Below the pieces are notes generated by a model. The model worked only from the letters and a program-made list of their open reading frames with translations, was not told where the DNA came from and made no database searches. From a virus (lineage: Duplodnaviria > Heunggongvirae > Uroviricota > Caudoviricetes), in the IMG/VR virus record IMGVR_UViG_3300028840_008157: a stretch of DNA of 64,000 nucleotides; one strand, 5' to 3'. The translations under genes and the position numbers were made by a program. Positions 4,385 through 60,081 of this stretch are shown one piece after another. The stretch's first letter is position 1, and every line of letters begins with the position of its first letter.

Positions 4385-4870
4385 TTAGGTCCCGTAAACT
4401 TCGAGTCTACGGAGGAACATCCTCGCCGACATGATGGGGAACGCGTTCATGTCCCCATGCAGCAGAAGGCTGGCGATTGCTGATCCTCTCTTGGCAGCCG
4501 CGTGGCAAATCTGGGCTTTGATGACGGGATGGGCGGCGTGAATTCGTTCCGGGTCGCTGGTGCAGATCACCCATCCCAACAGCAACCTCCTTGGATCGTG
4601 GGCCACCATGACGAAGGCTTCCTCGTCCTTGGCGAGGATTTCCCTCAGGACTTTCTTGATCCCCTCGACGAACTCATCGAACTCCTCCATGATGTCCTCT
4701 GGGACTGATCCGCGCCTGGAAATCTCCCGAACCTGACCGGATACCCAAGGTTCTGGCTTGGGAACCGGTCGCCTTGGCTGTGTCCCCCGTTTCTGGCTCG
4801 TCTCTTCTCCGGGTAGCGTTCCGGCGGCCATGGCGGCCGCGCCCCCGGCGATGAAGGTTCTACGATCCAT
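4385..4870 (-). CDS. hypothetical protein with twin-arginine-like N-terminus
   Basis: MDRRTFIAGGAAAMAAG. Confidence 0.7.
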   Translation of the reverse strand: MDRRTFIAGGAAAMAAGTLPGEETSQKRGTQPRRPVPKPEPWVSGQVREISRRGSVPEDIMEEFDEFVEGIKKVLREILAKDEEAFVMVAHDPRRLLLGWVICTSDPERIHAAHPVIKAQICHAAAKRGSAIASLLLHGDMNAFPIMSARMFLRRLEVYGT

Positions 4871-7768: not shown

Positions 7769-7818
7769 TTGACAGTTGAGGTATAAGTAATCTTAGCGAC
7801 GTTGACAGTTGACTGTAA
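7769..7818 (+). promoter_or_regulatory. TTGACAGTTGA direct repeat and dyad upstream of the MerR gene
   Basis: Copies at 7769-7779 and 7802-7812; the second overlaps the dyad acag-ttga-ctgt. Confidence 0.45.
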
Positions 7819-7832
7819 ACATGAGGTGGACG

Positions 7833-10800
7833 ATGAACATCAAGGAAATGGCAGAACTGGCGACCACGATCATCGAGGAGAACATCGGACCGATCAACGT
7901 GGACGTCAGAACCATCAGGTATTACGAGACTTACGGGGTCATGGAGAAACCCCCCAAGAAGGGCCGCGAGAACGATTACGGGATCGAAAACCTCAAGCGC
8001 CTGGTGGCCATCAAGGCTCTCCAGTCAAGGGGCATCAGCCTTGGCCAGATCAAGAAAGAGAACGTAGATGTCGATGGCGTCCTGCGGAGCGTCGGGATCG
8101 ACCCGCTCGTCGTGGGTGCCTTCATCGAGAGGGAAATCGAAGAGTCTCGGGAGAAGCCCGAGAGGGAGGATGACATGAGCGTCAAGGGTCAAGCGGAACC
8201 GAAGAAGGAAAAGAAGAAGGAAAAGGAAGGGGGTTCTCCCTTGATCCTTCCGCCGGAGAAGGACGACAACAGCCTTTCCGTCGAGGTCACGAACCAGATG
8301 ACGTTCATGCCGATGAAGGACCGTCTCTTCGTCGGCTCATCGTTCGCGTTCGTCGACGGGCCGGACGACGAGATATCCAAGCTGATCTACGCCAAGCTAC
8401 ACGGGCAGCTCAAGAAATCCAAGAAGATGAAGCGCGCCGTCATACCCGTGTCCGGGGAGGTCGAGCTTTTGGGATGCGTCGTCAAGGGTGGCCGAGGGAA
8501 TAGAAACCAGCTCGGCGTCCTGGTCCCCGACAAGGACTCCTACAGGGAGGGCGACGACGTCGCCCGCGTACTCGTGTTCGAGCCCGAGAGCAAGGGCAAG
8601 TCCGTCCAGCTCGACGTCAAGCTCAACGGCGCGCCTCTCGACGTGATGAACGTCCCCATCGACGACAACGGCTGCGGCATCGCCCGCGTCCCCACGCTGG
8701 TCGCCGGGAAGTACGAGGTTCACGTGAATGGTAGCGGCGACTGCTCCTTCGAGGCCAGTCGTTACGAGCTCGACCCGCTGACCATCTCGGTTACGGCGTC
8801 CCGCAAGACCCCGGAGGGCATCGAGATCGACCTGTCTGCCGAGCGGTTCGGGAAGCCGATGAAGGGGAAGGCCGAGGTCAGGCTCATCGACGACGGAACC
8901 CCGATCTCCGAGCAGGTGGTCGAGTTCAAGGACGGCGTCGTGACGAGCAAGTGGGACGACCTCGGGGAGGGGAACGCCTCCGTCATGCTGACCCCCGCCG
9001 ACGACAAGTCGCTCATCGCGAGCGCGCCGATACTCGGCTCCAGGAGGGAGGAACGCGAGGACACGACCATCTCCCGCATGGGTCGCGTCATGACGGCGTC
9101 ACTGATGGCCTCGAAGGGCGCCCGTAAAGAGCGCGGCATCTACGTCTCGGAGGAATCCGTGACGAACGCGCCGATCTCGCTGGAGTCCGTCTTCTGCGAC
9201 AATGGAAAACTGAACCTCAAGTTTTCCGCCGACGCGTCCAAGGTGACGGTCGCGGTTTCCGACCCGTCCTCCGGTGAGATCGAGATCTACGACGTCGGCG
9301 ACGTCTCGAAGGGATCCAAGAGGTCGATCAAGGTCAACTCCGCGTTCGCCCTCGTCTCCGTCGGCGCGTTCGTCAAGGACAGGCCGTGGGAGGCCAACGC
9401 GACGGTGATCAACCCGTCGAGGGGCGAGTTCAAGCTGTCGATGCCTGGCGAGGGGTTGTTCGAGCCGGGTGACGAGATGGAGATCGACCTCACGTCCAAG
9501 GAGCCTTGCAGCGTGTTCCTCAAGGTCGTTGACACGCGCGTTAGGGCCATGTACGAGCCCGTGGTGGCCATCGCGTCCAAGGCCAAGTCCTGGTTCTCGA
9601 GGGAGATGCTCGGGCTGCTGACGGGAAACGCGTGGAAGCCCGTCATCGTTGACGGCATGTACCGATACATGAGGGGTTTCACGGGACCGACAGGTCCGAC
9701 GGGTTGGACGGGTTCCTCCGGCGCGAGCGGACACGGCTACCCGGGTGGCCGGCGGCGTCTGTCGCAGGCCAGGGTCATAAGCCGTCGAGGCGCGGTGCCC
9801 TACGACGACGCCATGACGAAGGGCGTTGCCGGATCTCAGGGTTCGTCCGGCGACCCGTCCTACCATGTAAGTTACCACGCGACGCCTGACTCGACCTTCC
9901 TCGGGACGGACGACCACAAGGTCTATGCGGCTTCGCTGGCCCCTCCGGCGGCGAACGCGATGGGCTCCGAGGAACTGACCTCCGGCGGGGGGATTTTCCT
10001 GTGTGACTCGATCAACGTCGAGATGCCAGAGGTCGCCGAGATGGAGTCGAGAAAGTCGGACGCGGACGTCGTCTTCTGCGACCTGCTCCGGGTGCCGAAG
10101 TCGGGGCGCAAGGTCAAGATCAAGCTGCCGGACAGGATCGCCTCGTACGACGTCAAGGCGTTCTTCGTCAGCGGCAACGATTGGTCCGAGGCGGAGGAGA
10201 AGGCCGTCGCCATCAAGCATCTCTACATCGAGCCAATGATCCCGGCCGTCGCGGTCCCAACGGACCAATGCCGCGCCGTGGTCGTCAACGGCAAGGACTG
10301 CGAGGCCATCGTCACGGTAAACGGCGAGAAGGTCGAGATCACGCGCTTCAAGACCCCCGACGGGGCTTCGGTCATGCTGACCTGGGCGGCCCTTCCCGGC
10401 GTTCACGAGGTCGCCGCGACCTACAAGGGACACTCCGACAGGGTGTCCAAGATCGTCGAGCCACCGGGCGAGGAGATCGTCCTGTCCCAGGAGACGCACG
10501 TCATGGCCAAGGGCGAGACGTACGAGCTCGAGGAGGACGCCCTGTCCGCGTACGTGATGCCGGGCCTCGAGGAGGAGCTGGAGACGGTCGTCCACGTGAC
10601 GGTCAACTACGAGCATTGCTGCTGCGAGCAGACGGCGGCCAAGATCGTCGCGGCCTGCGTGGCGGCGACGGTCGGCAACGACGGCGACAAGGCCAAGGCG
10701 TACAAGGCCATCGCCAACGGGCGCGCCCGGCTGAGGAGCCTCTACAACGGGGGCGCCTTCAACTACTATCCTGGGCACGGGGTCAACGCGTGGGCCTCCG

Positions 10801-11684
10801 ACCTGGCCGCGAGGCGCGTCGCCCAAGTCGACGTCAAGGATGCCCCGAAGGACGTCGCCGAGGCTCTCGACGACATCCGCAAGATGGGCGTCTCCGTCGT
10901 CGCCAGCGCCTCGTCCAGCTACCAGAGCGACCTGGAGGCCGCCTTCGCGAAGGGCGACTTCTCGTCCGTCTCGACGACCGACGCGATGACGGCGGCCTCG
11001 TCCGTCAAGGGCGGATCATCGATGGCCATCGCCGACGCCGCCTACGCGGCTTCGTGCCTGCTGCGATCCGGAAGGATCGCCCCGGGCATCCAGGTCGCCA
11101 ACGAGGTCGCCAAGGCCGTGGCCCCCGCGAAGGGGGGAGCCATGTACGGGACGAACGACATGCTCGGCTACCTGATGATGGTCATGTCCCTCTCCGATAC
11201 CGGCGTGATCCCCGCCTCGGGCGGCAAGGTCGTGGTCGACGGGGCGAAGAAGGACGTCGTCGACGCGACGAACGACCCGGCGACGAGGATCGAGGCGACG
11301 GACAATCCCGTGGCCATCCGTATCAACCGCGTCAAGAAGCTGCGGCTCGACGAGGAGACGTCGGAAGTACCGATCGAGGTCAAGCTCGTCGGGGCCAAGG
11401 GCAAGAAGGTGAAGGCCGGCCAGATGGCGCGGCTCGTCGTCCGGACGGACGGCTACAAGGCCGGGGACGTCGTGGTAGTCAGGCTTCCACAAGGACTCAG
11501 CCGGGTCGTCGGTGGAGGCAAGCAGAAGAAGTTCCAGGTCGACTTCGAGGGCAAAAACGAGGTTTCCATCGACCTCGTGGCCCATGAGGCGGCTGAGCAG
11601 CAGATGGGCGTAGTTGTCCGGAACATGTATGACTCGTCGAGGATCGGATCGGCGGGCTTGATCGACGTGAAGGTCGTCGCGTGA
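7833..11684 (+). CDS. MerR-HTH fused alpha-2-macroglobulin-like thioester protein
   Basis: MerR motif VRTIRYYETYG...Y...L..I..LQ.RG.SL.QI; MG2-like PDKDSYREGD; VFLKVVD; KLPDRIASYDVKA; thioester-type CCEQ at 10620-10631; TED-like GRARLRSLYNGGAFNYY; internal GGAGG-ATG at 8175; no signal peptide. Confidence 0.8.
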   Translation: MNIKEMAELATTIIEENIGPINVDVRTIRYYETYGVMEKPPKKGRENDYGIENLKRLVAIKALQSRGISLGQIKKENVDVDGVLRSVGIDPLVVGAFIEREIEESREKPEREDDMSVKGQAEPKKEKKKEKEGGSPLILPPEKDDNSLSVEVTNQMTFMPMKDRLFVGSSFAFVDGPDDEISKLIYAKLHGQLKKSKKMKRAVIPVSGEVELLGCVVKGGRGNRNQLGVLVPDKDSYREGDDVARVLVFEPESKGKSVQLDVKLNGAPLDVMNVPIDDNGCGIARVPTLVAGKYEVHVNGSGDCSFEASRYELDPLTISVTASRKTPEGIEIDLSAERFGKPMKGKAEVRLIDDGTPISEQVVEFKDGVVTSKWDDLGEGNASVMLTPADDKSLIASAPILGSRREEREDTTISRMGRVMTASLMASKGARKERGIYVSEESVTNAPISLESVFCDNGKLNLKFSADASKVTVAVSDPSSGEIEIYDVGDVSKGSKRSIKVNSAFALVSVGAFVKDRPWEANATVINPSRGEFKLSMPGEGLFEPGDEMEIDLTSKEPCSVFLKVVDTRVRAMYEPVVAIASKAKSWFSREMLGLLTGNAWKPVIVDGMYRYMRGFTGPTGPTGWTGSSGASGHGYPGGRRRLSQARVISRRGAVPYDDAMTKGVAGSQGSSGDPSYHVSYHATPDSTFLGTDDHKVYAASLAPPAANAMGSEELTSGGGIFLCDSINVEMPEVAEMESRKSDADVVFCDLLRVPKSGRKVKIKLPDRIASYDVKAFFVSGNDWSEAEEKAVAIKHLYIEPMIPAVAVPTDQCRAVVVNGKDCEAIVTVNGEKVEITRFKTPDGASVMLTWAALPGVHEVAATYKGHSDRVSKIVEPPGEEIVLSQETHVMAKGETYELEEDALSAYVMPGLEEELETVVHVTVNYEHCCCEQTAAKIVAACVAATVGNDGDKAKAYKAIANGRARLRSLYNGGAFNYYPGHGVNAWASDLAARRVAQVDVKDAPKDVAEALDDIRKMGVSVVASASSSYQSDLEAAFAKGDFSSVSTTDAMTAASSVKGGSSMAIADAAYAASCLLRSGRIAPGIQVANEVAKAVAPAKGGAMYGTNDMLGYLMMVMSLSDTGVIPASGGKVVVDGAKKDVVDATNDPATRIEATDNPVAIRINRVKKLRLDEETSEVPIEVKLVGAKGKKVKAGQMARLVVRTDGYKAGDVVVVRLPQGLSRVVGGGKQKKFQVDFEGKNEVSIDLVAHEAAEQQMGVVVRNMYDSSRIGSAGLIDVKVVA

Positions 11685-23079: not shown

Positions 23080-24756
23080 ATGCCTCGCGAGAGCATGACC
23101 GTACTCGTCATCTCTTCCTCAGACGAATCCCGAGAGGCCGCCTACGTCGTCGTCAGCGGCCTGAAGGACAACGGTCATGACGGTCTCATCTGCTGCTCCC
23201 CTGAAGCCGAGACCAGGATCAAGCCCGACCTGAGGCTTGACGAGGAGACGAGCCTCGGCGGCGTCAGCGGCGTCGTCGTCCTTGACGACGGCGGAGACGC
23301 AGAAGCCTGCGCGAAGATCGTCTCGAGGGCCAACAAGGACGACCTCGTCGTGGGCGGCATCGGCCCAGGGTGCCTGATCATGGCGTCCTGCGGCATCCTG
23401 AAGGATCATTACGTTTGCGACGGCCTGCCCGAGGAGGCTTACAAGGGGAAGGGCGTCGAGAAGGTTGAATCCCCTTCCGTCCGCAGCGACACCGTCCTGA
23501 CCTGCTCCGACGTGAGGATGGCCGACGGGTTCCTGTCGCTCGTCATCGACGCGCTCGGAGGAAAGGCCAGGCGCGTGGTCACAGGTGACGACGCTCCGGT
23601 CACGGAGGCGAGCCTCCTCATCGTCGACGACACCTCGGCGTGGCCGGACTACTGGGGCGTCGCGAGGGAACTGGACAAGAAGGGGTGCCGGACGTTCATC
23701 GGGCGCTGGGAGGACGTCGACGTCGCTTCCGGGAGGGCCGGTTGCCTGTCGATGGGCCCAGACGGCGTCAAGACATGCATGACGGTCGGCATCCCCAAGA
23801 CGATATGGTTCAGGCAGCAGATGCCATTGCGCGACGCGGCCTGCGCCGTGTCCGAGCTGGAGTCGCTGGGATGCCGGAACGTCAACTCCTCGGAGTCCAT
23901 CAGGCTCGCCTCGGAGCCCCTTGACGAGCTGCTTGGCGGCGTCGTCGAGGTCGGGAAGCCCGACGAGCAGGGGTTCAAGGTGATCGCCAATCGTGGCGAA
24001 GACGGGTGGAAGGCCGAGGCGCTGGGTGACGTCCGCGAGGCCGTCGAGTCGGCATGCACCGCTTTCCAGTCATCCCTTGACGACCATGACGGCGCGAACA
24101 GCGTCAGCGTCCGGGTGACCCTCCGCGATGACCGCCCCACGATCAACGGCATCGACCCCCTGGATTCGGACATGGCCATCGACGCCCGCGGCGACGACCC
24201 CGTCACGCTCAGGGCCATCGTCGAGAGGGAGATGGCCCACGAGGGGATGTGGCTCCAGCCTGACGGCAGGCTGGCCATACTGGAGGACGGCCACTTCAAG
24301 AGGCTCCCCCCCGAGGAGGCTTTGCTCGACCTCAGGAAGAAGGTCCTGTCCGCCATCAGGAGGGAGATCGAGGAATCCCATCGGGGAAAGGAGGACGTCG
24401 CCATGAAGCGCGCGCGCAGGCTCTCGCGTCGCGCCAGGCACAGGTTCTTCCTCGCCTTCGAGCTGCTGGGCGCCAACGTGACGACGGCGTACGGCCTGTA
24501 CCCGTCCGGAGTCGCCGGACCGTGGGCTCACCTGGACATCCCGATGTTCGAGAGGGTCTTCCAGTGGCAGGAGGGCGACGACTGGCTGAAGGATCGGGAG
24601 AAGGCGATCAGCAAGTTGCCCAGGTACAACCCACAGTACGACTTGCACGGGTTCTACTTCAAGTGGATAGAGCCTAGGAACCTGGCGTACGCCTGGGAGA
24701 ATCGCTTCAACGAAGGGTCGTACCCGATGCGCAACGTACTCAACCTAAACAGGTAG
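23080..24756 (+). CDS. multidomain protein: degenerate DJ-1/PfpI-like plus RimK/ATP-grasp-like N-terminal segment
   Basis: IKPDL.L, VVGGIGPGCLIMA.CGIL, V.SD.VLT; IWFR...LESLG.R.VNSSESIRLA; ends TAG in frame with the next gene. Confidence 0.6.
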   Translation: MPRESMTVLVISSSDESREAAYVVVSGLKDNGHDGLICCSPEAETRIKPDLRLDEETSLGGVSGVVVLDDGGDAEACAKIVSRANKDDLVVGGIGPGCLIMASCGILKDHYVCDGLPEEAYKGKGVEKVESPSVRSDTVLTCSDVRMADGFLSLVIDALGGKARRVVTGDDAPVTEASLLIVDDTSAWPDYWGVARELDKKGCRTFIGRWEDVDVASGRAGCLSMGPDGVKTCMTVGIPKTIWFRQQMPLRDAACAVSELESLGCRNVNSSESIRLASEPLDELLGGVVEVGKPDEQGFKVIANRGEDGWKAEALGDVREAVESACTAFQSSLDDHDGANSVSVRVTLRDDRPTINGIDPLDSDMAIDARGDDPVTLRAIVEREMAHEGMWLQPDGRLAILEDGHFKRLPPEEALLDLRKKVLSAIRREIEESHRGKEDVAMKRARRLSRRARHRFFLAFELLGANVTTAYGLYPSGVAGPWAHLDIPMFERVFQWQEGDDWLKDREKAISKLPRYNPQYDLHGFYFKWIEPRNLAYAWENRFNEGSYPMRNVLNLNR

Positions 24757-32482: not shown

Positions 32483-33217
32483 ATGAGAATCGCCTCGTGC
32501 AACAACAACTCGTTGGACAGGCTGATCCGCCGCGAGGCGGCCCTTGGCGACCTGGAGAAGGTCGTCGAGGCCGCTTCCTCCAACAACGATCCAGAGGACG
32601 TCTTGCCCGCTCTTCGCATGATCGTCTCCGCGAATCATGACGTCCTCGAGGAGATGGACCTCAAGGGAACCCTGTCCAGGCTCGCGGCCAAGGGGGTCAA
32701 GGTCGCGTGGGCCGAGGGATTCATGGGGGGCCTTGGCGGCGCGCTCGAGGGAATACAAAAGGGATGGCAATCTGGCGCGCAAGGGGCGAAGGTTCAGAAG
32801 GCCAAGCAGCAGGCCATCCAAGCCCTACAAAACCTCATGCAGGTCGATCCCGAGGCGCACAAGATCGTCGGCAACGTGATCACCCAATTGTCTCCCGCCG
32901 GCGCGGCCGACGCACAACAAGGACAGCAGCAACAGCAACAAAACCTGCAACAAATACCGCCTCAACAGGCGGCCCAGGAACTCGCCCAACAATCACAAGG
33001 TCCCCAGGGGATGCAGCCGCAGCGCATGCAACCGCAGAGAGCGGGCCAAGCCCAGGCGTCGCCGATGGCCGCGTTAAACAATCTCATGCGCCAGAACGCG
33101 GGCAACGAGTCCTTCAATAACGATTTGCAAGCCCTGATCCAGAAGTATAGCCCCCAACAAGCCCTTCCTGGGGCTGGCCCGGGAACTCCTGGCGTACGGG
33201 TGCCGGCCGGAAAGTAG
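32483..33217 (+). CDS. hypothetical Gln-rich protein
   Basis: Poly-Q and QP tract at about 32914-33050. Confidence 0.8.
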   Translation: MRIASCNNNSLDRLIRREAALGDLEKVVEAASSNNDPEDVLPALRMIVSANHDVLEEMDLKGTLSRLAAKGVKVAWAEGFMGGLGGALEGIQKGWQSGAQGAKVQKAKQQAIQALQNLMQVDPEAHKIVGNVITQLSPAGAADAQQGQQQQQQNLQQIPPQQAAQELAQQSQGPQGMQPQRMQPQRAGQAQASPMAALNNLMRQNAGNESFNNDLQALIQKYSPQQALPGAGPGTPGVRVPAGK

Positions 33218-33221
33218 TCCA

Positions 33222-34703
33222 ATGCTGATCGTCGCGCCGAACAAACCGAAGCAGGTCGTCGCGTGGCGGTGGCCATTCTCCCGCGAGAGCGAGTTCGAGG
33301 CCGCGGCCAAGCGACTGTCGAAGGAGAAGCTGGGCAAGCTCAGGTTCCTGGTCGACCAGTTCTCCAACGCCATCCTCCTGGGAGAGTTCACGCGGGCCAT
33401 CCCCGACGCGAAGACGCTGGATCGGGCCGTCGAGAGGTTCGAGGTCCTCGCCAACCCGATCGTCTCCGCCGCCATGTCGATGGAGGACGAGCTCGCGAAC
33501 CGCGGGATCAACGTCTCCTACAGGACCAAGGACCCGATGACCGGTAACGAGGCGCGCATCGACGAGCTATACATGTCGCTATTCAACCTCGTCAAGATGG
33601 CCAAGGCGTGGTGGGGGGACGAGGAGAAACGTCGCGGCATCCTGTCCGCGATGGTCGCGAGGATGACGTCCATACAAGATACCCTCGAGCGCGTGTCGGA
33701 GCCATATGCCAGTCCCCGCGCCATCAAGGAGATCGACAAGATACCCTACCGCGAGGACTCGGACTGGGGGGAGAAGATGCGGGATAAGGTCGAGACCGCC
33801 CCGCCGGAGGCCAAGCCCGAGACCCCCGCCCCCGCTCCGGAACCGGAAGCCCCATCACCCGCCGGTGACGTCCCGTATTTCGCCGGGACCGGAGACGAGG
33901 AGAAGAAGGGCCATCAGGCCAAGTCAAGAACCCAGTTAAGGGACGACGTCCTGGACGCCCTCAGGGCCAACCGAGACAAGCTTCCCGACGACCTGAAGGC
34001 GGGATTCCCAGGGTTAGTCCGTTTCTTCATGATGATGTCCAAGGTCAAGACGGCCGGCTTCCTGGAGAACGTCTACAACCAGCGCAAGGGCGACGTCTCC
34101 AGGCTGCTCCAGCGCTTTTACGGGGACGATTACGCTCGCGTCAAGGACTTCGAGCAAGCCGTCCTCTCCTGGCTCGAGCACGTTTGGAACGTGGAGGATT
34201 TCCCCGAGGTCGACCCCCAATCGCACGGCATCGAACCGTTCGATCACCTGATGGACGTCGCGAGGGAGATGACCGACAGGGGGGATTCGCACGAGGCCGT
34301 CGTCGACGAGATTTCAAGGCTGATGATGAAGATCACGGGAGGACGCGAGTTCAAGCTCAACGACCTGGTCAACAAGCGCCCCCACTTCTTCTCTTCCAAC
34401 CCGGAGTTCGCCGAGGCGGTCGAGAAGACGCGGAAGGAGATCAGGGGGACTCTATCGGCCCCCGCCGCCCCGGCCATACCGTCCCAGATCCCGAAGGCCA
34501 CCCCGAAAGCGCCAATCGTTCTGGAGCCCCCGGAAGAGGAGGTCGGCGTCCCGGAGGAATACACCGGCCCGATGCCCCCGGAACCCGCGCCTCCCCCGAG
34601 GAAGCCATCCGTGGAGGTACTGAAGCCGGGCGAAACCCCGAAGGCCGACACGCCTAGGTTCTTCAAGCCCCCAAGGAAACCGACGAGGAAGCAACGAACA
34701 TAA
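33222..34703 (+). CDS. hypothetical protein
   Basis: 493 aa; VKTA and GVPEEYTGP motifs. Confidence 0.8.
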   Translation: MLIVAPNKPKQVVAWRWPFSRESEFEAAAKRLSKEKLGKLRFLVDQFSNAILLGEFTRAIPDAKTLDRAVERFEVLANPIVSAAMSMEDELANRGINVSYRTKDPMTGNEARIDELYMSLFNLVKMAKAWWGDEEKRRGILSAMVARMTSIQDTLERVSEPYASPRAIKEIDKIPYREDSDWGEKMRDKVETAPPEAKPETPAPAPEPEAPSPAGDVPYFAGTGDEEKKGHQAKSRTQLRDDVLDALRANRDKLPDDLKAGFPGLVRFFMMMSKVKTAGFLENVYNQRKGDVSRLLQRFYGDDYARVKDFEQAVLSWLEHVWNVEDFPEVDPQSHGIEPFDHLMDVAREMTDRGDSHEAVVDEISRLMMKITGGREFKLNDLVNKRPHFFSSNPEFAEAVEKTRKEIRGTLSAPAAPAIPSQIPKATPKAPIVLEPPEEEVGVPEEYTGPMPPEPAPPPRKPSVEVLKPGETPKADTPRFFKPPRKPTRKQRT

Positions 34704-41876: not shown

Positions 41877-41993
41877 CCGTTCGAGTCGCGCCCCTTACGG
41901 TCGCGCGGATTGAAACGAGTAGGAAAACGCGCCGTATGATCTGAACGTGTAAGTATGGAAGTGTGAAGCCTTTTATAGGAGAGGGAATTGACC

Positions 41994-44900
41994 ATGAGGT
42001 TCATTGGAAACATCGAGTCCGCCATGGATGCGCTGAAGTCGTCCAAGACGGGCGCCCCGTCGGGAACCCCCCAACGCAACGTCGTCACGAACGCGCCGTT
42101 GCCTAACTCGGCGTTCGCCCAGAGCGCGGCGGCGTATACCCCTTCGCGGGTCAAGACGGCGCAGGTGTCCGGCAACGTCATCTACACGCAGCCTTCGTTC
42201 TTCAGCCCGCTGCACACGCCGCAGAACTGGCAAATCCCGACCAAGCGCCGCGAGGTATACCAGTGGTCGTTCGTAAACGGCGACAAATTGATGACCAATG
42301 ACGGAACTTACAAGTGCATTTCAAAAATAGTCGAAGGTGACAAGCTGGTTACCCATACGGGCGAAGTCCAGACGGTTGACAAGAGGACTTCCAGGATGGT
42401 GGATACGGACTTGTTCTCCGTATCTTACGACGGTCATTACCTTCGAACCAGGCTCACTCGAGGCCACAAGGTATACGTCCTCCGCAGGGAGGACGTCCTT
42501 TGCAAGTATAGCAACAGCGGTTGCAAGATGGCCTCTCGTTACTGCGATTCAAACAACCTGCATTACATGTGCCGAAGGACGAAGTGCAAACGACACGAGG
42601 AAAGAGAACTCGTTCCGGAACTGGTTCCCGTGGAGAACATCAAGGAGGGGGATTTCGTTTATACCCCGTCTATGATCTCCGACAAATCATCATCCAGCAT
42701 ACCTACCATTGATCATGCCAGGCTGCTCGGATACTACTGCGCCGAGGGATGCCTTTTGGGCAAGACGGGCGTATGCTTTACCTTTGGAATCCACGAGGAA
42801 ACATTCGCCAATGAAGTTGTAGCCTTGGCGACAAAATGCTTCGGAACCGAGGTCAGGAAAACAAGAATCGCAAAGCATCCCGAACGCGGAACGTGCGACG
42901 TATTCGTTAATTCGAACAGTCTGAACGCCTTTTGCCATGAGCATTGCGGGAGCATGGCGACCAAGAAGCGGCTTTCCGTCGGACTCATGACGTCAAGCCG
43001 CGAAATCCAATTGAACTTCCTCGCCTCTTATTGGAACGGGGATGGATGCCAGAGTTTTACGAAAGGAAATCATGGAAGGGTCGATTTCAGGACGTCGTCC
43101 ATGTTTCTCTCTGAACAAATCCAATCCCTCTTGTCCATGTGCGGATATCCGTCAAGGTGCAGTTTTTCGAGGACCAAGAACAACCACAAATCCATGGTCC
43201 ACAGGCAATCCAAGAAGCCGTTCTTCGATTGCTACACCGTATCTTTTGGGGCGAGCGCGGGAGGAGACTTCTTTGACCTGTGCGGTGCCGACGTTGGCTC
43301 CCAGAAGGGAAGGAAGTCAAGCGTCAGGCTCGTCTCCGGAATGTTACTGAGACGCGTCAAACGCGTTTCCTCGAAACCCTACAAGGGGAAGGTATACGAC
43401 GTTCGCGTCCCTGGGAACTACTCGGTCGTTTGCAACGGCATAGCCGTGGCCCAATGCCGCTACTACTACGAAAATGAACCCAAGGTCGCGTCGGCGATAG
43501 ACTTCTACAGCCACTTCGCCATCAACGGGTTCGAGACCCAATGCGAGCATCACGCGATCAAGCGGTTCTTCGACCAGCTCAACAAGAAGCTCAACCTGGA
43601 TTACTGGGCGAAGCTCATTTCCAAGGAGTACTACATGCTCGGGGACGTGTTTCCGTTCCTCGAGATCGAGTGCCAGAAGTGCCACGGGGGCGGCTTCACC
43701 GATAGCGGTAAGGTTTGCCGCCACCCCGGCGGATCGTTCAGGCGTCTCGTGGTCCTCAACCCGGACTGGATCGACGTCCAGACCAACGTCATGGTCGACG
43801 ACCCGATCATCACGCTGCTCCCGGACGACGAATTGAAGAAGATCGTCTGGCGCAAGCAGCCCAAGGCCATCTACGACAGGCTCCCGACGAACGTCCGGGC
43901 TCTGATCCTGGCCAACCGGCCGATCCCGCTGTCCAACGAATGCGTGTCGCACCTGCGGCACAACCCGTACCCCTACGGGACGTACGGCGTGTCGCTCCTG
44001 AGAAGGCTGTTCAAGACGCTCGCCTACAAGGACAAGCTGATGTCGGCGCAGTGGATCATCGCCGAGCGCATGATCCTGCCCGTCCGCGTCGTGAAGCTCG
44101 GCGACTCCGAGCGTCCCGCCGGGCCGGCCGACATCGCCGACGTCCAGAACCAGCTCGCGAACGTGGTGAACGACCCGAACCTGACGCTGGTGACCCACCA
44201 TGCGTTCAACTACGACTGGATCGGGACGAGCGGCAAGGTCCTCCAGCTCTCGAACGAGTACGAGCTGATCGACAAGGAAATCCTCCAGGGTCTCATGATC
44301 AACGAGGCATTGCTATCAGGAATGATGGGAAGTTATCAGTCAGCCGCCATCGGCGCCGAGGCCATGATCCAGCGGATGGAGTCGTGGAGGCTCGAGCTGG
44401 CCCGATGGATCGAGGATCGCATCTACAAGCCGGTCGCCCAGATGAAGGGCTTCGTGGACGAGGCCGCCACCAAGGAGGTAGGCGAGCCCGTTTGGATCTA
44501 CCCGAAGATCCAATGGAACGAGCTCAACATCCGCGACGACAGCCAGCAGAAGCAGTTGCTCAACTCGCTCTTCGACAAGGGTCTCCTATCGGGCCAGTCG
44601 TTGCTCGAGAAATACGGGCTCGACTACGACCACGAGATCGAGCGCCTGCGGTTCGAGTCCGCGACCCAGAAGCTCGCCGGGATGGCCGGCGCGGGCGGCG
44701 CGGGCGGCATGATCGGCGGCATGGGCGGCGGAGCTGGCGGGGGCATGGAGGGCTTGTTCGGCGGAGGCGGGGCGCCCGCTGGCGGACCGGAGATGGGCGG
44801 CGCCCCGGAGATGGGCGGCGCGGACATGGGAGGCGCCCCGGCGGCCCCGGCCGCGGCGGCCGGAGTAGGGGGCACGTCTGGCAAGATACTATCCAAGGGC

Positions 44901-45422
44901 CGCAAGCCCATGGGCCAGGTTCCGGACGAGGCCGACATCCAGCCGGTAACCGTGAGGCTGACGTCTCTCGAGTCGCTGATGTACAAGGAAATCTCCGCGA
45001 TGAAGCTGCCGTTCGCGGTCGGCGTCCAGCAGCAGATCGGCCCGTACGTGGCCGACTTCTGCATCCCGATGCTCAAGATGGACATCGAGGTCGACGGCGC
45101 GTACTGGCACAACCAGCCCGAGACCAAGGCGCACGACGAGATTCGGGACGACGAGATGTCACGGGCGGGCTGGACGATCCTAAGGTTCGGCGAGTCCGAA
45201 CTAAAGGAGCGGCTGCCAGAGGTTCGGAAGACTATATTGGCGTACGTCCACAAGAACTGGCGTCGCGCCATCGAGGAGCAGAAGCGCCAGACGAAGGCGT
45301 TCGACGAGGCGTCTCTGCGCATGACGAAGATATCGGGCGAGACGGAGGAGGTGTCGCCCGTCATCGAGCCGGAGGTCGACGGTGGCGATTCCGATCAAGG
45401 AACGGGGAATCCGGTGGGTTGA
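41994..45422 (+). CDS. portal protein with intein and C-terminal DUF559/Vsr-like nuclease domain
   Basis: Extein junction REVYQW/CRYYYENEP.V.SAID; HLRH.P.PY..YG.SLLRR; Gly/Met linker; YVADF...IEVDG.YWH...D..RD....GW.ILRF. Confidence 0.8.
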   Translation: MRFIGNIESAMDALKSSKTGAPSGTPQRNVVTNAPLPNSAFAQSAAAYTPSRVKTAQVSGNVIYTQPSFFSPLHTPQNWQIPTKRREVYQWSFVNGDKLMTNDGTYKCISKIVEGDKLVTHTGEVQTVDKRTSRMVDTDLFSVSYDGHYLRTRLTRGHKVYVLRREDVLCKYSNSGCKMASRYCDSNNLHYMCRRTKCKRHEERELVPELVPVENIKEGDFVYTPSMISDKSSSSIPTIDHARLLGYYCAEGCLLGKTGVCFTFGIHEETFANEVVALATKCFGTEVRKTRIAKHPERGTCDVFVNSNSLNAFCHEHCGSMATKKRLSVGLMTSSREIQLNFLASYWNGDGCQSFTKGNHGRVDFRTSSMFLSEQIQSLLSMCGYPSRCSFSRTKNNHKSMVHRQSKKPFFDCYTVSFGASAGGDFFDLCGADVGSQKGRKSSVRLVSGMLLRRVKRVSSKPYKGKVYDVRVPGNYSVVCNGIAVAQCRYYYENEPKVASAIDFYSHFAINGFETQCEHHAIKRFFDQLNKKLNLDYWAKLISKEYYMLGDVFPFLEIECQKCHGGGFTDSGKVCRHPGGSFRRLVVLNPDWIDVQTNVMVDDPIITLLPDDELKKIVWRKQPKAIYDRLPTNVRALILANRPIPLSNECVSHLRHNPYPYGTYGVSLLRRLFKTLAYKDKLMSAQWIIAERMILPVRVVKLGDSERPAGPADIADVQNQLANVVNDPNLTLVTHHAFNYDWIGTSGKVLQLSNEYELIDKEILQGLMINEALLSGMMGSYQSAAIGAEAMIQRMESWRLELARWIEDRIYKPVAQMKGFVDEAATKEVGEPVWIYPKIQWNELNIRDDSQQKQLLNSLFDKGLLSGQSLLEKYGLDYDHEIERLRFESATQKLAGMAGAGGAGGMIGGMGGGAGGGMEGLFGGGGAPAGGPEMGGAPEMGGADMGGAPAAPAAAAGVGGTSGKILSKGRKPMGQVPDEADIQPVTVRLTSLESLMYKEISAMKLPFAVGVQQQIGPYVADFCIPMLKMDIEVDGAYWHNQPETKAHDEIRDDEMSRAGWTILRFGESELKERLPEVRKTILAYVHKNWRRAIEEQKRQTKAFDEASLRMTKISGETEEVSPVIEPEVDGGDSDQGTGNPVG
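42267..43454 (+). mobile_element. 396-aa intein with LAGLIDADG homing endonuclease, atypical termini (Ser1, Ala-Gln C-terminus, Cys+1)
   Basis: SFVNGDKLMT.DG..K.I..I..GD.L.TH.G; block B LTRGHKV; LLGYYCAEG and FLASYWNGDG; Y.GKVYDVRVPGNYSVVCNGIAVAQ/C; lower GC than flanks. Confidence 0.9.
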
Positions 45423-49641: not shown

Positions 49642-52600
49642 ATGCTCTTAAAATACCACAAGCCAGTGCGCGGCAAGATCATGGCGATCCTCCAAGCGCC
49701 CGGGCAACACGTCGTCGAGGTCCCGAAACCCAGGGAAGAGCCCGTCGGCCATGAGGTGAAGTACGCCGACGCCGTCGGACGCGAGATCAAGCAGGTCCTC
49801 GCCAGGAAGTTCGTGGGAGAGATCAAGCGTCGCGCCGACGGGACCGTCGACCTCGTCGCCGAGATGGCGAAACACCCGGAGGCGCTCTGGGTCAGGGTCA
49901 AGGCCATCGAGGCCGACGTCCCAAACGACAACGGCGACCTCTTCTCCGAGGACGAGATCTCCAAGTCCTACCAGACGTTCGAAGGCGTCCCCGTCTTCAC
50001 GAACCACGAGAACAACAAGGTCGAGGCCGCCAAGGGCAAGGTCGTCATGGCGGAGTGGGTGCCGGACGAGAAGTCCGTGTACTGCACGATGTTCATCGAT
50101 CGGGAAGCCTTCCCGACCCTTTGCCGCGCCATCGAGGAAGGCTACATCACGGACGTGTCGATGGGCACCCAGGTCGACTACTCCACGTGTAGCATCTGCG
50201 AAAACAAGGCGATCACGGCGGCCGACTACTGCGACCACGTCAAGACGATGAAGGGCCGCACGATCAACGGCAAGCAGGTGTTCGAGCGAAACTACGGCCT
50301 GAAGTTCATCGAGATCAGCGTCGTCACGGACGGTGCCTGCAAGGATTGCACGATCCGCGACGTTCTCGACCCCGAGGATTTCGTGGAGCAGGCCGGCGAG
50401 CTACAGAAGGCCGCCGAGTCCATGGAGCGCGTCGTCAAGACCGGGGACCGCGTCGAGCAGGACGACCTCGGGTCGCTCCTGTCCGGCATGAAGGATTTGG
50501 CGTCCTCGGAGCTCATGACGAAGGTCGCCGGCCAGGATGAGATCTCCAAGCTCAACCAGGCCATGGACTTGGTCCAGGACGTCGCCCAGACGATGCTGAG
50601 CCAGCGCCAGTACATCGACCTGGAATTCCTCGAGGACGTCGTCAAGGTCCTCGCCGACTTGCAACACGTCAACGACGAGCTCGTCGACCAGGGCTACGGC
50701 CGCGTCGGCGAGCCGCAGCAGCCAGGCGTGCCGCCGATGCCGGAGGCCCCCGGAGCGCCACCGATGCCAGGGCAGGAATCCGCCCCGGCCGCGCCGAACG
50801 AAACAATGGTACCCGCCCCGGGAGGGGTCGGGAAAGTCACGGAGCCCGCCATGGCGTCGAACGACAAGGAGACGCGCCTCTCGTCGTCTATAAAGGATTT
50901 GCACGAGAAAGCGCAGAAAATTTACGAAGAGGCTAGGGCCGAAGCGAGCTCTCGCGTCGGCGGCAATGGAGGCCAAGAGCCAGTGAATACCACCGAAAAG
51001 CGACAGGAAACCGTCAAGAAGCTCGCGCACGTCTGGAAGAACCCCTGCGTCAGGGGATTCAAGGCCGAGTTCTCCGAGGGCCCGTTGAAGATCATCATCG
51101 GGGACGAGGAGGTCTATGGAATGCGAGGCGCGCAGAAGATCGCTTCCCTCAAGATCGCCGATCTTGAAGATGACATCCGCGACGTCATCGACAAGGACCC
51201 CAAGTTCGCCGGGGCCGAGATGTTGACGGCCCTGAAGAAGCTCGCCGAGTCCGCCCCGAGCAACACGGCCGAGCAGCAATCGGACACCATGGAGGCGCAA
51301 CTGGAGAGCCAGCGCGTCCCGCTGCATCCCCGGACCGACGAGATCCGCCAGTCGATCACCGAGGACCAGCTCAGGGAGAAGCAGCGCGGGTACGACAAGC
51401 ACGCCCGGGACAACGACCCCCGCGACGTCATAACGGAGGCCCAGCTCCCCGACGAGCGCCAGGACGCCCCTCGCGACGAGGTCATGGAAGGGCAGCTCCG
51501 CGACAAGGGCATCGAGGGCAACCAGACGCCGGCCGACAGGGATTCCTACGCCGCCGGCGTGACCGACCAGAAGCAACAGATCACCGAACGACAGATCAAC
51601 GACTGGCGGGAGTCCGACGAGGCTCACCGCCCGGAAACCATCACGGAAGACCAGCTCAAGAGCGATCAGGGCGAGCCGTGGGGACGCCGCATCGCGTCGA
51701 AGGAGGACGCGAGGAAGGCGCTCGCCGCGGGGATGCAGGCGTTCGTCAGGACGGCGAAAGCCACTGGGGCGACCCCAGCCGAGATCGTCTCCTCCGTTTC
51801 GGAGTTCGTCGCCTCGCCGCGTAACGCGGTCAAGGCGACCAACTTCATCGAGGCCTCGAAAGTGGGCCAAGATGGACGCGAGACGATGCTCCGCAGGGCT
51901 GCGTTCCACGGGACGCCCCGCGACTCGTCCAGGCTTTCCGTGCAAAACTACCTGCTCGGCAGTCTTTCCGACGTCGGCCTCCGCGGCGAGGTCGGGCTGA
52001 AGATCGCCGAGACGATCTCCTCCCAGAAGGACGCCCCCGACAAGATCGCCGAGGCGGTCAAGGCTTGGAAATCCTCCGAAGAGGCGAAGGACGAGCCCAA
52101 CGCGGCGGAGTTCCTCCGCGAGGCGCTCGCCGAGGACTCCGAGGAGGTCGTGAAGGTCATCCTGGCGTCAAGCGACGTGAAGGGCGAAGGCGAGAAGTGG
52201 GTCGAGTCGGCCTACGACGCCGCCACGAAGATCGCCGCCAACCAGGGGATCGAGGTCTCCAAGCGAGTACAAGTCCAGAAGAAGGCCGACGGAAGCGTCG
52301 AGGTCAACCTCATGGGCCGCAAGGCTTCCGGCGACAAGAAGGTCAAGGTCGCCGAGAAGAAAGAGGCGGACCTGAAGGAGCGCAAGGAAGCCCGGCGCAA
52401 GGTCGCCCAGATGCCCGCGGGCGGGATGCCCGCTGGCCCGGACCCCATGGGAGCCCCAGGCGGGACGACGATGCCGATGCCGCCCGCGGCTGGCGACCCG
52501 ACGGCCGCCCCCCCGGTTAGCGCGCTCGGCGAGCCGCCCGAGGCCGGCCTGGAAGAGGAGCCGATGGAGGGCGAGGCGCTTCCGCCAGGAAGCATTTGCC

Positions 52601-53208
52601 CGGCCTGTGGTTCCGACGACGTCGACATGAAGGGCGGCGACTTCAACTGCAACCAGTGCGGCTCGACCGGACACATCACGGTCAAGATCGACATGGACAC
52701 GTGGCCCGGGTCGATCGAGGAGAAGAACCCGGCCGAGAAGGCCGAGATGGAGGAGGAGGGGCTCGGCGAGGAAGGCGGGGAGATACCGCCGGCCGGGCTG
52801 CCCCCCGTCGGGATCGCCGCTTCGTACAAGGTGACCCCGGAGATGGTCAAGAAGGCCGGCAGCGAGAAGTCGCCGATCGGACGGTTCTGCCCGCATTGCG
52901 GGTCGAGCAAGGTCAAGTTGGCCGCGAAGGCCGGTTCCGGGAACGGCACGTGCGAGTCCTGCAAGGGCGCGTACGGGTTCGACACCTTCGTCCAGGAAGG
53001 GACCAACGACATCTGGGCGAGGATCGAGTGGCAGGACCGAGGCCGAAAGTCGCGGTTCGCCGCCAAGCCCAAGGCGTGCAACCCCAAGAAGGCGAAGCTC
53101 GAGGCGGCCCTCAAGTCGAAGGGACTCGTGAAAAAGTTCGCCAGCGCCGACGTCGCCGGGAAGGCGAAGATCATCGCCGACCTGCACGACGAGGGGGTCC
53201 TTGCCTGA
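49642..53208 (+). CDS. prohead protease fused to scaffold-like repeats and Zn ribbons
   Basis: N.NGD.F..E, TF.G.PVF.NH, VSMG, CSIC..A..YCDH, F.EIS.V..GA; (I/M)TExQL repeats; four CxxC pairs at the C-terminus. Confidence 0.75.
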   Translation: MLLKYHKPVRGKIMAILQAPGQHVVEVPKPREEPVGHEVKYADAVGREIKQVLARKFVGEIKRRADGTVDLVAEMAKHPEALWVRVKAIEADVPNDNGDLFSEDEISKSYQTFEGVPVFTNHENNKVEAAKGKVVMAEWVPDEKSVYCTMFIDREAFPTLCRAIEEGYITDVSMGTQVDYSTCSICENKAITAADYCDHVKTMKGRTINGKQVFERNYGLKFIEISVVTDGACKDCTIRDVLDPEDFVEQAGELQKAAESMERVVKTGDRVEQDDLGSLLSGMKDLASSELMTKVAGQDEISKLNQAMDLVQDVAQTMLSQRQYIDLEFLEDVVKVLADLQHVNDELVDQGYGRVGEPQQPGVPPMPEAPGAPPMPGQESAPAAPNETMVPAPGGVGKVTEPAMASNDKETRLSSSIKDLHEKAQKIYEEARAEASSRVGGNGGQEPVNTTEKRQETVKKLAHVWKNPCVRGFKAEFSEGPLKIIIGDEEVYGMRGAQKIASLKIADLEDDIRDVIDKDPKFAGAEMLTALKKLAESAPSNTAEQQSDTMEAQLESQRVPLHPRTDEIRQSITEDQLREKQRGYDKHARDNDPRDVITEAQLPDERQDAPRDEVMEGQLRDKGIEGNQTPADRDSYAAGVTDQKQQITERQINDWRESDEAHRPETITEDQLKSDQGEPWGRRIASKEDARKALAAGMQAFVRTAKATGATPAEIVSSVSEFVASPRNAVKATNFIEASKVGQDGRETMLRRAAFHGTPRDSSRLSVQNYLLGSLSDVGLRGEVGLKIAETISSQKDAPDKIAEAVKAWKSSEEAKDEPNAAEFLREALAEDSEEVVKVILASSDVKGEGEKWVESAYDAATKIAANQGIEVSKRVQVQKKADGSVEVNLMGRKASGDKKVKVAEKKEADLKERKEARRKVAQMPAGGMPAGPDPMGAPGGTTMPMPPAAGDPTAAPPVSALGEPPEAGLEEEPMEGEALPPGSICPACGSDDVDMKGGDFNCNQCGSTGHITVKIDMDTWPGSIEEKNPAEKAEMEEEGLGEEGGEIPPAGLPPVGIAASYKVTPEMVKKAGSEKSPIGRFCPHCGSSKVKLAAKAGSGNGTCESCKGAYGFDTFVQEGTNDIWARIEWQDRGRKSRFAAKPKACNPKKAKLEAALKSKGLVKKFASADVAGKAKIIADLHDEGVLA

Positions 53209-56865: not shown

Positions 56866-57729
56866 ATGCTCAAGAATAACCAGAACGATCAGGAACGCGA
56901 GGCCGTTATCGCGCAAGCCCTCGAGACGGATGAGGGTCGCGTCGCTCTCGCGCAGGCCATGGTGGAGCCAATCCGCCGGGCCCTCGAGTACCAGGCCGTC
57001 GGGCGCAAGCTGCTCATGGTGGACGAGCTCCCTCAGGGTGCGCTCGCTCGCTACGAGCGTGACGTTCGCTCGGTCGCCCGCGTCATCTCCCGCAGGGGCG
57101 CGGTGCCGGACGAGATCCAAGAGGGCGAGGAAGTCCTCGTCCCGACGTTCGAGATCGCGACCAACCCGCAGGTTCGGTTGAGCGAGATCAAGGCTCGCCG
57201 GTTCTACATCGTGGACCGTGCGCAGATCAAGGCCAAGGAAGCGATCCAGAAGGAAGAGGATAGCAATATCTTCAACGCTCTGATCGCGTCCGTCAACGCC
57301 GCTCACACGGTCACGGCGACCGGTGGCGCGCTGACCCTGACGGCCCTGAACCAAGCGTTCGCGACGATCGAGGCGCACGACCTCACGGTCGCCAAGATCG
57401 TGATGCACGCCCAGCGGTACGCCGACGTTCGTAACTTCGGCAAGACCGTGTACGACGAGGCGACTCAGCGCGAGGTCTTGACCTCCGGCTTGTTCGGTCA
57501 CCTCTGGACCGCGGACATCCACGTCAGCTCCAGGATGCCCACGACCACCGTCCTCCTGACGGCGCCCGCCGATTACGTCGGCGCGTTCCCGATCCGGCAG
57601 GACATCACGGTTCTCCCCGCGGACGACCCGAAGAAGCTCCGCCTCGGCTGGGTCATCTACGAGGAGATCGGGATCGTGGTCATCAACGACTACGCGGTGG
57701 CCAAGATCACGGTGACCAGCGGCTCGTAA
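56866..57729 (+). CDS. major capsid protein (HK97 fold)
   Basis: GR.ALAQAM.EPIR..LEYQ.VGRK.L.VDELPQGA, VPTFEIA.NP, ED..IF, GW..YE.IG...N..AV; extreme codon bias; followed by a terminator. Confidence 0.88.
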   Translation: MLKNNQNDQEREAVIAQALETDEGRVALAQAMVEPIRRALEYQAVGRKLLMVDELPQGALARYERDVRSVARVISRRGAVPDEIQEGEEVLVPTFEIATNPQVRLSEIKARRFYIVDRAQIKAKEAIQKEEDSNIFNALIASVNAAHTVTATGGALTLTALNQAFATIEAHDLTVAKIVMHAQRYADVRNFGKTVYDEATQREVLTSGLFGHLWTADIHVSSRMPTTTVLLTAPADYVGAFPIRQDITVLPADDPKKLRLGWVIYEEIGIVVINDYAVAKITVTSGS

Positions 57730-59293: not shown

Positions 59294-60049
59294 ATGGCCT
59301 TGCGCTCGTTCGGATGCGAGCTGGAGTTCTGCTCCGACTGGGAGCGGACCAAGGACGCTCTCCATCAGGCCGTGGAAGATGTATACGGGCCCCATAAGCT
59401 GATGGTAAGGGAGGCTTGGTACCGGTCCATCAACAACCGTACCTGGCACATGAAGGAGGACGGCTCGACGACCGGAGAGATCGTGACGCCAGTCTCGACG
59501 GAGGATGACCTTGATCTCATATGCGAGGTCATCGGGCTCCTGAGGGCGTCGGGCGTCAAGGCCGGACGGAAGGACGGGTTTCACGTCCACGTGTGGGCGA
59601 GGGACCTCGACCCGAGGATGCTCGTGGCTTCGTGGGCCAGGATCGAGACGCAAGTCATGTCGGTTTTCCCTCGTCACCGCAGGTCGAACTACTATTGCGC
59701 GCCCATACGGGATTCGCGCTTCGAGTCCATGATGGAGTCGGCCAGAAAACACCACGCCGCGTTGTCCATGCGATTGAGGAAATTCCCCAAGTCGCCCAAG
59801 GAGCCACGGATGAAGCAGCGCGGGACCGTCGAGTTCCGCGTCGCGGAGGGGACGTTCGACCCGGTCCTGGTCAGGAATTGGATAAGGTTCTGCCTCCGGT
59901 TCGTCGAGGGGGCCAAGGATATCGACCCCTACGTGTTCATGACGGACAGGCCGTCCAAGCCGAACCTGAGGCAGCTCCTACGCGAGATCGGGATGGAATC
60001 CTCCTACGGGTTCTTCGATTCGAGGAGAAGGCGTTTCGCCCGCGTATAA
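59294..60049 (+). CDS. putative amidoligase (COOH-NH2 ligase type 2)
   Basis: FGCELEF, W...EDGS, EIVTP, GFHVHV, TVEFR. Confidence 0.85.
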   Translation: MALRSFGCELEFCSDWERTKDALHQAVEDVYGPHKLMVREAWYRSINNRTWHMKEDGSTTGEIVTPVSTEDDLDLICEVIGLLRASGVKAGRKDGFHVHVWARDLDPRMLVASWARIETQVMSVFPRHRRSNYYCAPIRDSRFESMMESARKHHAALSMRLRKFPKSPKEPRMKQRGTVEFRVAEGTFDPVLVRNWIRFCLRFVEGAKDIDPYVFMTDRPSKPNLRQLLREIGMESSYGFFDSRRRRFARV

Positions 60050-60081
60050 TCCCGAAGCCGGATGAACCGGGAGGACTACGC

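Follow-up and report, generated by a model that had tools for sequence, protein, structure and literature searches.

A MerR–alpha-2-macroglobulin fusion protein of a phage-G-like jumbo phage carries a capsid peptide in its bait region: a candidate covalent trap

The 64,000-nucleotide stretch of viral DNA analyzed here (the window) carries, on the plus strand at 7833–11684, a gene that fuses a MerR-type helix-turn-helix (HTH) to an alpha-2-macroglobulin (A2M). Its product is 1283 amino acids long when read from the ATG at 7833, in a frame that opens at 7809, and has an N-terminal Pfam MerR_1 match (PF13411; 7896–8057, +; E 1.3e-8, above the cut-off) as well as a Pfam A2M match. Two copies of TTGACAGTTGA lie upstream of the gene (7769–7819, +), and a CCEQ motif, putatively an active thioester, is encoded at 10620–10631 (+). 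The predicted disordered bait (9651–10040, +; model residues 468–597, pLDDT<50), hypervariable across the family, contains a spacer-like stretch of Gly-x-Ser/Thr repeats (9675–9728, +); the in-frame peptide ARVISRRGAVP (9768–9800, +), a re-coded, exact copy of residues 71–81 of the phage's own major capsid protein (MCP); and a weak GroES-mobile-loop-like motif (9969–10001, +) that fails the regular expression used for our motif counts.

The source peptide is encoded in-frame at 57076–57108 (+), within an MCP gene (56866–57729, +) whose product matches 6WKK (E 2e-98) and the PHROG major head protein and is a close relative of phage G gp27, with full-length homology and 55% identity. Together with related records that reach 460–550 kb, this identity points to a phage-G-like jumbo phage. 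In the MCP model, pLDDT falls below 50 at residues 76–80, and the copied segment precedes a long helix (118–142) in a region of low confidence. The E-loop position suggested for residues 71–81 in the earlier note fits the HK97 topology and is possible, the model being unreliable at 71–81. The portal gene (41988–45422, +; PHROG portal, E 1e-43) contains an intein-like insert bearing a LAGLIDADG domain and, at the C-terminus, a nuclease-like DUF559 domain, and the gene at 49642–53208 (+) encodes a protein with an N-terminal head-maturation-protease match (phrog_18299, E 7e-18).

We modeled the A2M body with AlphaFold2 from a 25-sequence alignment, taking the residues encoded from 8250 on and leaving out the HTH. 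The model (pLDDT 77) has the architecture of the A2M superfamily, namely tandem MG domains, a helical TED, a CUB, and a C-terminal MG domain. VIA-align matched it to A2ML1 and CD109 with Z about 20 (up to 20.2, rmsd 6.2, 455 aligned) and to bacterial A2Ms with Z 17–18, including Z 18 for E. coli A2M 4rtd; the best 50 rows were all A2M, complement, or TEP entries. Similarity to A2M clusters in the ESM Atlas was 0.92–0.95, and these clusters, together with the structure matches, support the A2M identity first proposed from the sequence. The CCEQ motif is invariant in 25/25 fused proteins and in the 25/25 unfused proteins aligned. The TED is predicted to be short, about 210 residues, which counts against a trapping function.

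The phage protein shares with E. coli ECAM (4rtd, 4ziq) and Salmonella SaA2M (4u48) the MG-domain/TED fold, at Z 17–18, together with a CxEQ motif and a bait that forms a disordered part of an MG domain (PMC4498604). Whereas ECAM and SaA2M are membrane-anchored, periplasmic, and equipped with broad baits, the phage protein is shorter, begins with a MerR HTH in place of an ECAM-type lipoprotein signal, and carries copies of virion peptides in its bait; a crude pattern found no lipobox in the first 40 amino acids of any of the 25 fused proteins. A literature search, run mostly at abstract level and without most subscription journals, showed no phage A2M among the papers listed, and the best 50 matches in a viral structure library included one A2M-named giant-virus protein and no phage protein so named.

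Both reading frames were checked, and the exact 11-residue MCP copy reported in the earlier note lies in the A2M-like protein at the coordinates given above. It falls in the sole long segment of the AlphaFold2 model with pLDDT<50, in agreement with the bait position claimed for it, and homologues have their Pfam A2M_BRD match on one side of this region and their A2M match on the other; model and homologue matches agree on a disordered bait that splits an MG domain in two. The two coding copies differ at 9/33 nucleotides and in 6/11 codons, every difference being silent; from the codon usage of 18 long window genes, 6.6 codons would be expected to differ once silent sites are saturated. None of 200,000 sets of nine random nucleotide changes was entirely silent, a figure that is biased if taken alone, the segment having been chosen for its identity. 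Since silent sites are saturated and all 11 residues are unchanged, the copy is old in DNA and exact in protein, and the peptide has been retained at the protein level, as first suspected. Shared 11-mers, a chance expectation that the earlier note had proposed to compute, amount to 2.4e-5 per proteome (103 crudely called proteins, 31,869 amino acids, 111-kb record). One further gene pair among the 103 proteins has an 11-mer in common, and there it belongs to a longer duplicated stretch common to both genes; an 8-mer common to the gene at 23080–24756 was taken as chance. The exact peptide occurs in 15 of the 120 closest MCPs and in none of 80 more distant IMG/VR relatives. These 80 loci suggested that Arg72 is unique to the window MCP, an idea that was dropped because the closest MCPs often carry Arg72. 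We conclude that the capsid peptide in the bait is genuine and selected, and that the protein carrying it truly belongs to the A2M family, here met in a new setting.

The nearest relatives of the phage protein (about 30% identity) belong to bacterial merR-A2M operons, which have the same CCEQ, often a merR directly upstream, and a similar operator. The 80 nearest loci are patchily distributed over Myxococcota, Acidobacteriota, Gemmatimonadota, Obscuribacterales, Thiotrichaceae, Chloroflexota, and others, and a separate merR gene lies near the A2M gene in 16 of them, often abutting the A2M start. Unlike in the phage, merR is separate in these operons and the baits are Pro/Ala/acid-rich; 67 full-length proteins from such loci gave no MCP or portal profile match, and the GroES-like regular expression matched 1/67, counting matches anywhere in the protein. 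A tree built from non-bait sequence groups the 25 fused proteins in a single clade, separate from the 14 bacterial relatives included (SH-aLRT 100); this and the other trees are quick searches with SH-aLRT only.

The second TTGACAGTTGA copy (7802–7819) is a near-palindrome that resembles the promoter/operator upstream of bacterial merR-A2M operons, where the pattern TTGACAGT-N4-ACTG is exact at 8 of the 11 merR-A2M loci inspected; the exact pattern also occurs in 4 other of 224 loci. The operator-type pattern, with a 2-nt centre, is present once in the 64-kb window, just upstream of the fusion gene (shuffle mean 0.01); a search of the plus strand there gave no clean sigma-70 promoter. Both MerR-family traits sought by sequence, an N-terminal winged HTH and an operator-like palindrome at the promoter, are present. 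The phage gene is best read as a fused bacterial merR-A2M operon that has kept a variant of its operator, and given this ancestry a role of the HTH beyond autoregulation would be unnecessary. Upstream of merR at the bacterial loci L165, L171, L172, L174, L192, L193, L196, L205, L212, L218, and L221, the conserved palindromic operator overlaps a near-consensus sigma-70 -35 box. The merR-A2M operon spans several phyla, and we found no earlier description of it with its palindromic operator.

Foreign peptides were sought in the baits of 25 full-length MerR-fused relatives, a sample that omits six partial proteins (<900 aa) and two near-duplicates of the relative P0004, and in the baits of 126 unfused relatives. 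A recognizable foreign peptide, derived from MCP or portal or resembling the GroES mobile loop, is present in 15/25 fused baits and absent from 10/25; at the thresholds below, none of these motifs was found in the 126 unfused baits. The MCP profile scored at least 5 bits in 4/25 fused baits, 0/126 unfused baits, 0/25 non-bait remainders, and 1/2500 shuffles. The portal profile reached at least 8 bits in 3/25, 0/126, 0/25, and 1/2500, respectively, and at a threshold of at least 5 bits 5/126 unfused baits also score, via the Gly/Pro-rich portal tail. The GroES-like motif (EVKTSGGI-type), whose pattern was written after the baits had been seen, was matched by 9/25 fused baits, 0/126 unfused baits, 0/25 non-bait remainders, and 0/2500 shuffles. 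The earlier note held that its reading would fail if homologous A2Ms lacked any MCP-matching peptide; because MCP-like peptides do sit in homologous baits, that main objection falls away. Its proposal of a capsid decoy thus gains from these peptides, and it proves too narrow, as portal and GroES-like peptides are found in baits too.

Individual baits illustrate both retention and turnover. In the relatives P0002 and P0003 (51–56% overall identity), the MCP peptide is kept at a similar place amid flanks that cannot be aligned, the copy in P0004 (93% identical to P0003) has decayed, and P0005 is without it. Other MCP segments are present elsewhere, with residues 58–83 in P0022, 10–49 in P0028, and 27–43 in P0002, the last at 4.9 bits and marginally below threshold. 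A portal N-terminal segment is found in P0002 and P0003, and more weakly in P0004 and P0005, and P0035 has a 40-aa portal segment from further along (29.8 bits); the captured segments are 26–43 aa long in some relatives. In the window protein, the slot at 9969–10001 corresponds to one that in relatives is occupied either by an unmistakable GroES-like motif or by a portal peptide. Gly-x-Ser/Thr repeats occur in 7/25 fused baits versus 1/126 unfused baits, and similar repeats are present in other proteins of these phages; the window ORF at 59521–60981 has Gly-Phe-Ser-type repeats resembling those of some baits. Bait variation is fast, with 17/181 bait columns variable in the P0041 cluster versus 13/1147 elsewhere.

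GroES binds GroEL through its mobile loop. When a profile of the ten GroES-like stretches was compared with the PDB, 7/7 matches at E<=10 were GroES/Cpn10 (best E 0.004); the Pfam Cpn10 match was weak (E 0.13, 1/10 stretches), and PHROGs gave no match to the motif. The motif recurs across deep branches of the fused tree. A phage-encoded GroES as its source was not found in 5 near-complete relatives, nor did a motif search of related phage DNA and of 111 kb of the phage's own 547-kb contig find a GroES.

We also performed an unselected search of the baits against 2,497 phage ORFs, a database that over-represents the MCP neighbourhood, after adding P0005 and P0023 back to give 27 fused baits. 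At E<0.01, matches were obtained for 6/27 fused baits, 2/126 unfused baits, both acidic and of low complexity, and 6/540 shuffles. A peptide of the decoration protein is a weak match in fused baits. The enrichment for head genes is confounded, both by this bias of the database and because only conserved source genes are recognizable without the cognate genomes. Some relatives have larger additions. The unfused A2M P0016 has an apparent whole domain, PF05157, inserted in its bait, as do the unfused P0056, P0057, and P0059, whose bait-inserted domains are by eye presumably MshEN-like, and the fused P0027 and P0037 have a T5orf172/MUG113 domain between the HTH and the A2M body.

A single clade of MCP carriers was rejected by the AU test (p 1.2e-6; p 1.4e-3 for carriers of the 71–81 segment), with groups labelled before the tree was built and the test chosen after it had been seen. 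The peptides must therefore have been gained repeatedly, swapped between baits, or lost many times. The earlier note proposed testing whether bait peptides co-vary with the cognate MCP. MCP-like peptides do recur in homologues, but in the probable cognate pair formed by the P0024 bait and the MCP P0226, NRRGMVP faces SRRGGVP with 5/7 residues identical, which leaves it unproven that a bait strictly follows the MCP of its own phage. For the P0004 bait and the MCP P0214, an apparent co-variation is not attributable to one genome and was set aside. The window protein is phage-borne, P0024 is probably so, and the remaining fused proteins are assumed to be. The fusion gene is present in 0/50 MCP-related records, including 0/7 that are at least 90% complete, in a search that recovers the copy in its own genome; it is accessory among related phages. 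No second complete genome with both A2M and MCP genes was found, no locus could be confirmed when IMG/VR was scanned with A2M queries, and a metagenome scan gave one 1.2-kb fragment without the bait. A GTDB scan with the fused alignment and a search of cultured phages returned no match, and a further homologue search added nothing.

Copies of head-protein segments also occur outside A2Ms. Related jumbo phages without an A2M keep stand-alone MCP and portal fragments. Within the window, a small 161-aa ORF on the minus strand (4385–4870) begins with a TAT-like segment and contains remnants resembling MCP residues 72–86 and 248–266, ordered as in the MCP, at weak significance (hhalign E 2e-4, probability 45%); it is a possible stand-alone decoy. 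In the related genomes G006 (193588–193998 and 77507–78124) and G013 (508424–508639 and 32746–33564), ORFs with stand-alone MCP fragments or degenerate paralogues cover MCP residues 9–78, 47–104 plus 243–273, 7–38, and 16–42. A portal fragment (profile positions 305–354) occurs in small ORFs of G013 (300804–301220) and L028/L029 (13146–13454).

Several known systems suggest how such a protein could work. Cutting of its disordered bait springs an A2M, which then binds the protease via the CxEQ thioester (PMC4498604). The engineered 'tabula rasa' human A2M has a Gly-Ser bait that does nothing by itself, and selectivity is set by the substrate inserted into it (PMC8267569); the phage bait similarly combines a spacer-like Gly-x-Ser/Thr stretch with an inserted peptide, but the engineered trap is man-made, human, and extracellular, whereas the phage design is natural. 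Capsid proteins trigger several defenses, among them CapRel and Thoeris (PMC13728456), and in the Lit/Gol pair of e14 and T4 a short capsid peptide licenses the protease Lit to cut a host protein (PMC3014915). These, however, are host systems, no Lit homologue was identified here, and the MCP considered here is of the phage-G type, not T4 gp23. Ocr and nucleotide sponges divert immunity by mimicry (PMC12409349); they act non-covalently, mimicking DNA or binding signals, whereas the phage A2M is a candidate covalent trap with virion peptides.

We put at about even the prospect that the phage A2M is a lure-and-trap counter-defense against a putative host protease tied to head-protein sensing. 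In such a mechanism, the protein would act in the cytoplasm with an active thioester, against a protease whose existence and identity we postulate. Head-protein segments in the bait would recruit or activate a host immune protease or sensor-protease, the long captured segments (26–43 aa) serving as binding lures and neighbouring basic or acidic residues as cut sites; the flexible bait flanks would then be cut, and the thioester would capture the protease covalently. The GroES-like loop may stand in for a host substrate, the role that EF-Tu has in Lit/Gol, or may be a GroEL docking site. Because bait side chains are dispensable for A2M function and the peptide is exact while silent sites are saturated, the copy is best explained by what the peptide attracts. 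The fold, the CCEQ, the bait position, the old copy kept as protein, the repeated peptides, and the bacterial operon origin all support a trap; the decay or swapping of bait peptides (P0004 degraded, P0005 without, 10/25 unrecognized) counts against it, as do the 5/7 match in the P0024/P0226 pair, the accessory nature of the gene, and the confounded enrichment for head genes. Our literature search, with most subscription journals outside it, found no defense protease that cuts capsid or GroES. A broader proposal, which we advance tentatively and hold to be somewhat doubtful, is that in phage-G-like jumbo phages the bait of a bacterial A2M became an evolvable cassette into which immune-sensed head epitopes and a protease-attacked chaperone loop were repeatedly copied, yielding a covalent trap that can be programmed against defense proteases.

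Bait peptides could instead be binding decoys or address labels, and not cut sites: displayed on the A2M body, they would titrate sensors of capsid or portal, or attach the protein to GroEL or procapsids, with no need for protease trapping. The captured segments exceed what a cleavage site needs, related phages without A2M keep stand-alone MCP and portal fragments, and the GroES mobile loop binds GroEL, all of which would suit a decoy; yet the invariant CCEQ in 25/25 fused proteins speaks against it, and a 1,280-aa scaffold is costly where small ORFs could provide the display, so that we consider this reading unlikely.

Also unlikely in our judgment, though a live alternative, is a trap for a head-maturation protease: the A2M might time or quench the phage's own enzyme, or might be aimed at the enzyme of a rival jumbo phage, with a bait that copies the head-protein substrates of the protease. 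Head proteins are indeed the source of the recognized phage-derived peptides, namely MCP, portal, and, weakly matched, the decoration protein, and the window has a head-protease-like gene at 49642–53208. Moreover, prohead proteases have been linked to CBASS activation (PMC13728456), so quenching one could pay. Against this, the commonest bait motif is GroES-like (9/25) and GroES was not found in the 5 near-complete related phages, no obvious cleavage motif is common to the bait peptides, the solved phage G gp27 chain, 280 aa long and alignable from its third residue, shows no trace of processing at the N-terminus, and most relatives are without the gene.

A protease-sensing transcription switch, in which bait cleavage would alter binding of the MerR HTH to the operator and so read out proteolysis, not inhibit it, would account for the HTH fused in 25/25 proteins and for the operator-like palindrome just upstream. 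We regard it as very unlikely, since merR and operator were inherited from a bacterial operon with a separate merR gene (16/80 loci), simple autoregulation accounts for the operator, and, the operator pattern occurring once in the 64-kb window, no regulon is seen there. Neutral capture, the bait being a tolerant linker that gathers functionless fragments of abundant genes by recombination, would fit the tolerance of A2M for full bait replacement (PMC8267569), the fast variation of baits in the P0041 cluster, the decay of copies, and the other MCP fragments in these phages, but is highly improbable given a window copy identical in protein despite saturated silent sites, a peptide that persists in P0002 and P0003 amid unalignable flanks, and a GroES-like motif that recurs across deep branches.

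If the lure-and-trap reading is true, it represents a counter-defense principle that we did not find in the literature, a suicide trap lured by the virus's own immune-triggering epitopes; in the decoy and anti-defense literature that our search covered, including PMC12409349 and PMC12484599, we found no covalent protease trap baited with virion peptides. The baits would then be a readable record of the phage epitopes and host substrates used by unknown protease-based defenses, and the bait catalogue (MCP 10–49 and 58–83, two portal segments, and the GroES loop) would predict which epitopes are sensed. As a thioester trap marks its attacker covalently, one pull-down could identify capsid- or portal-sensing proteases. 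The phage A2M would likewise be the natural counterpart of engineered bait-swapped A2M inhibitors.

Minor observations were made at other loci. L223 (3595–5148, −) encodes a 518-aa squalene-hopene-cyclase-repeat protein in the phage genome, which may hint at the host. At L224 (6624–10955), NikA-like and ResIII helicase-like genes have a duplicated stretch in common at the protein level, and the larger of the two has an internal DNA repeat.
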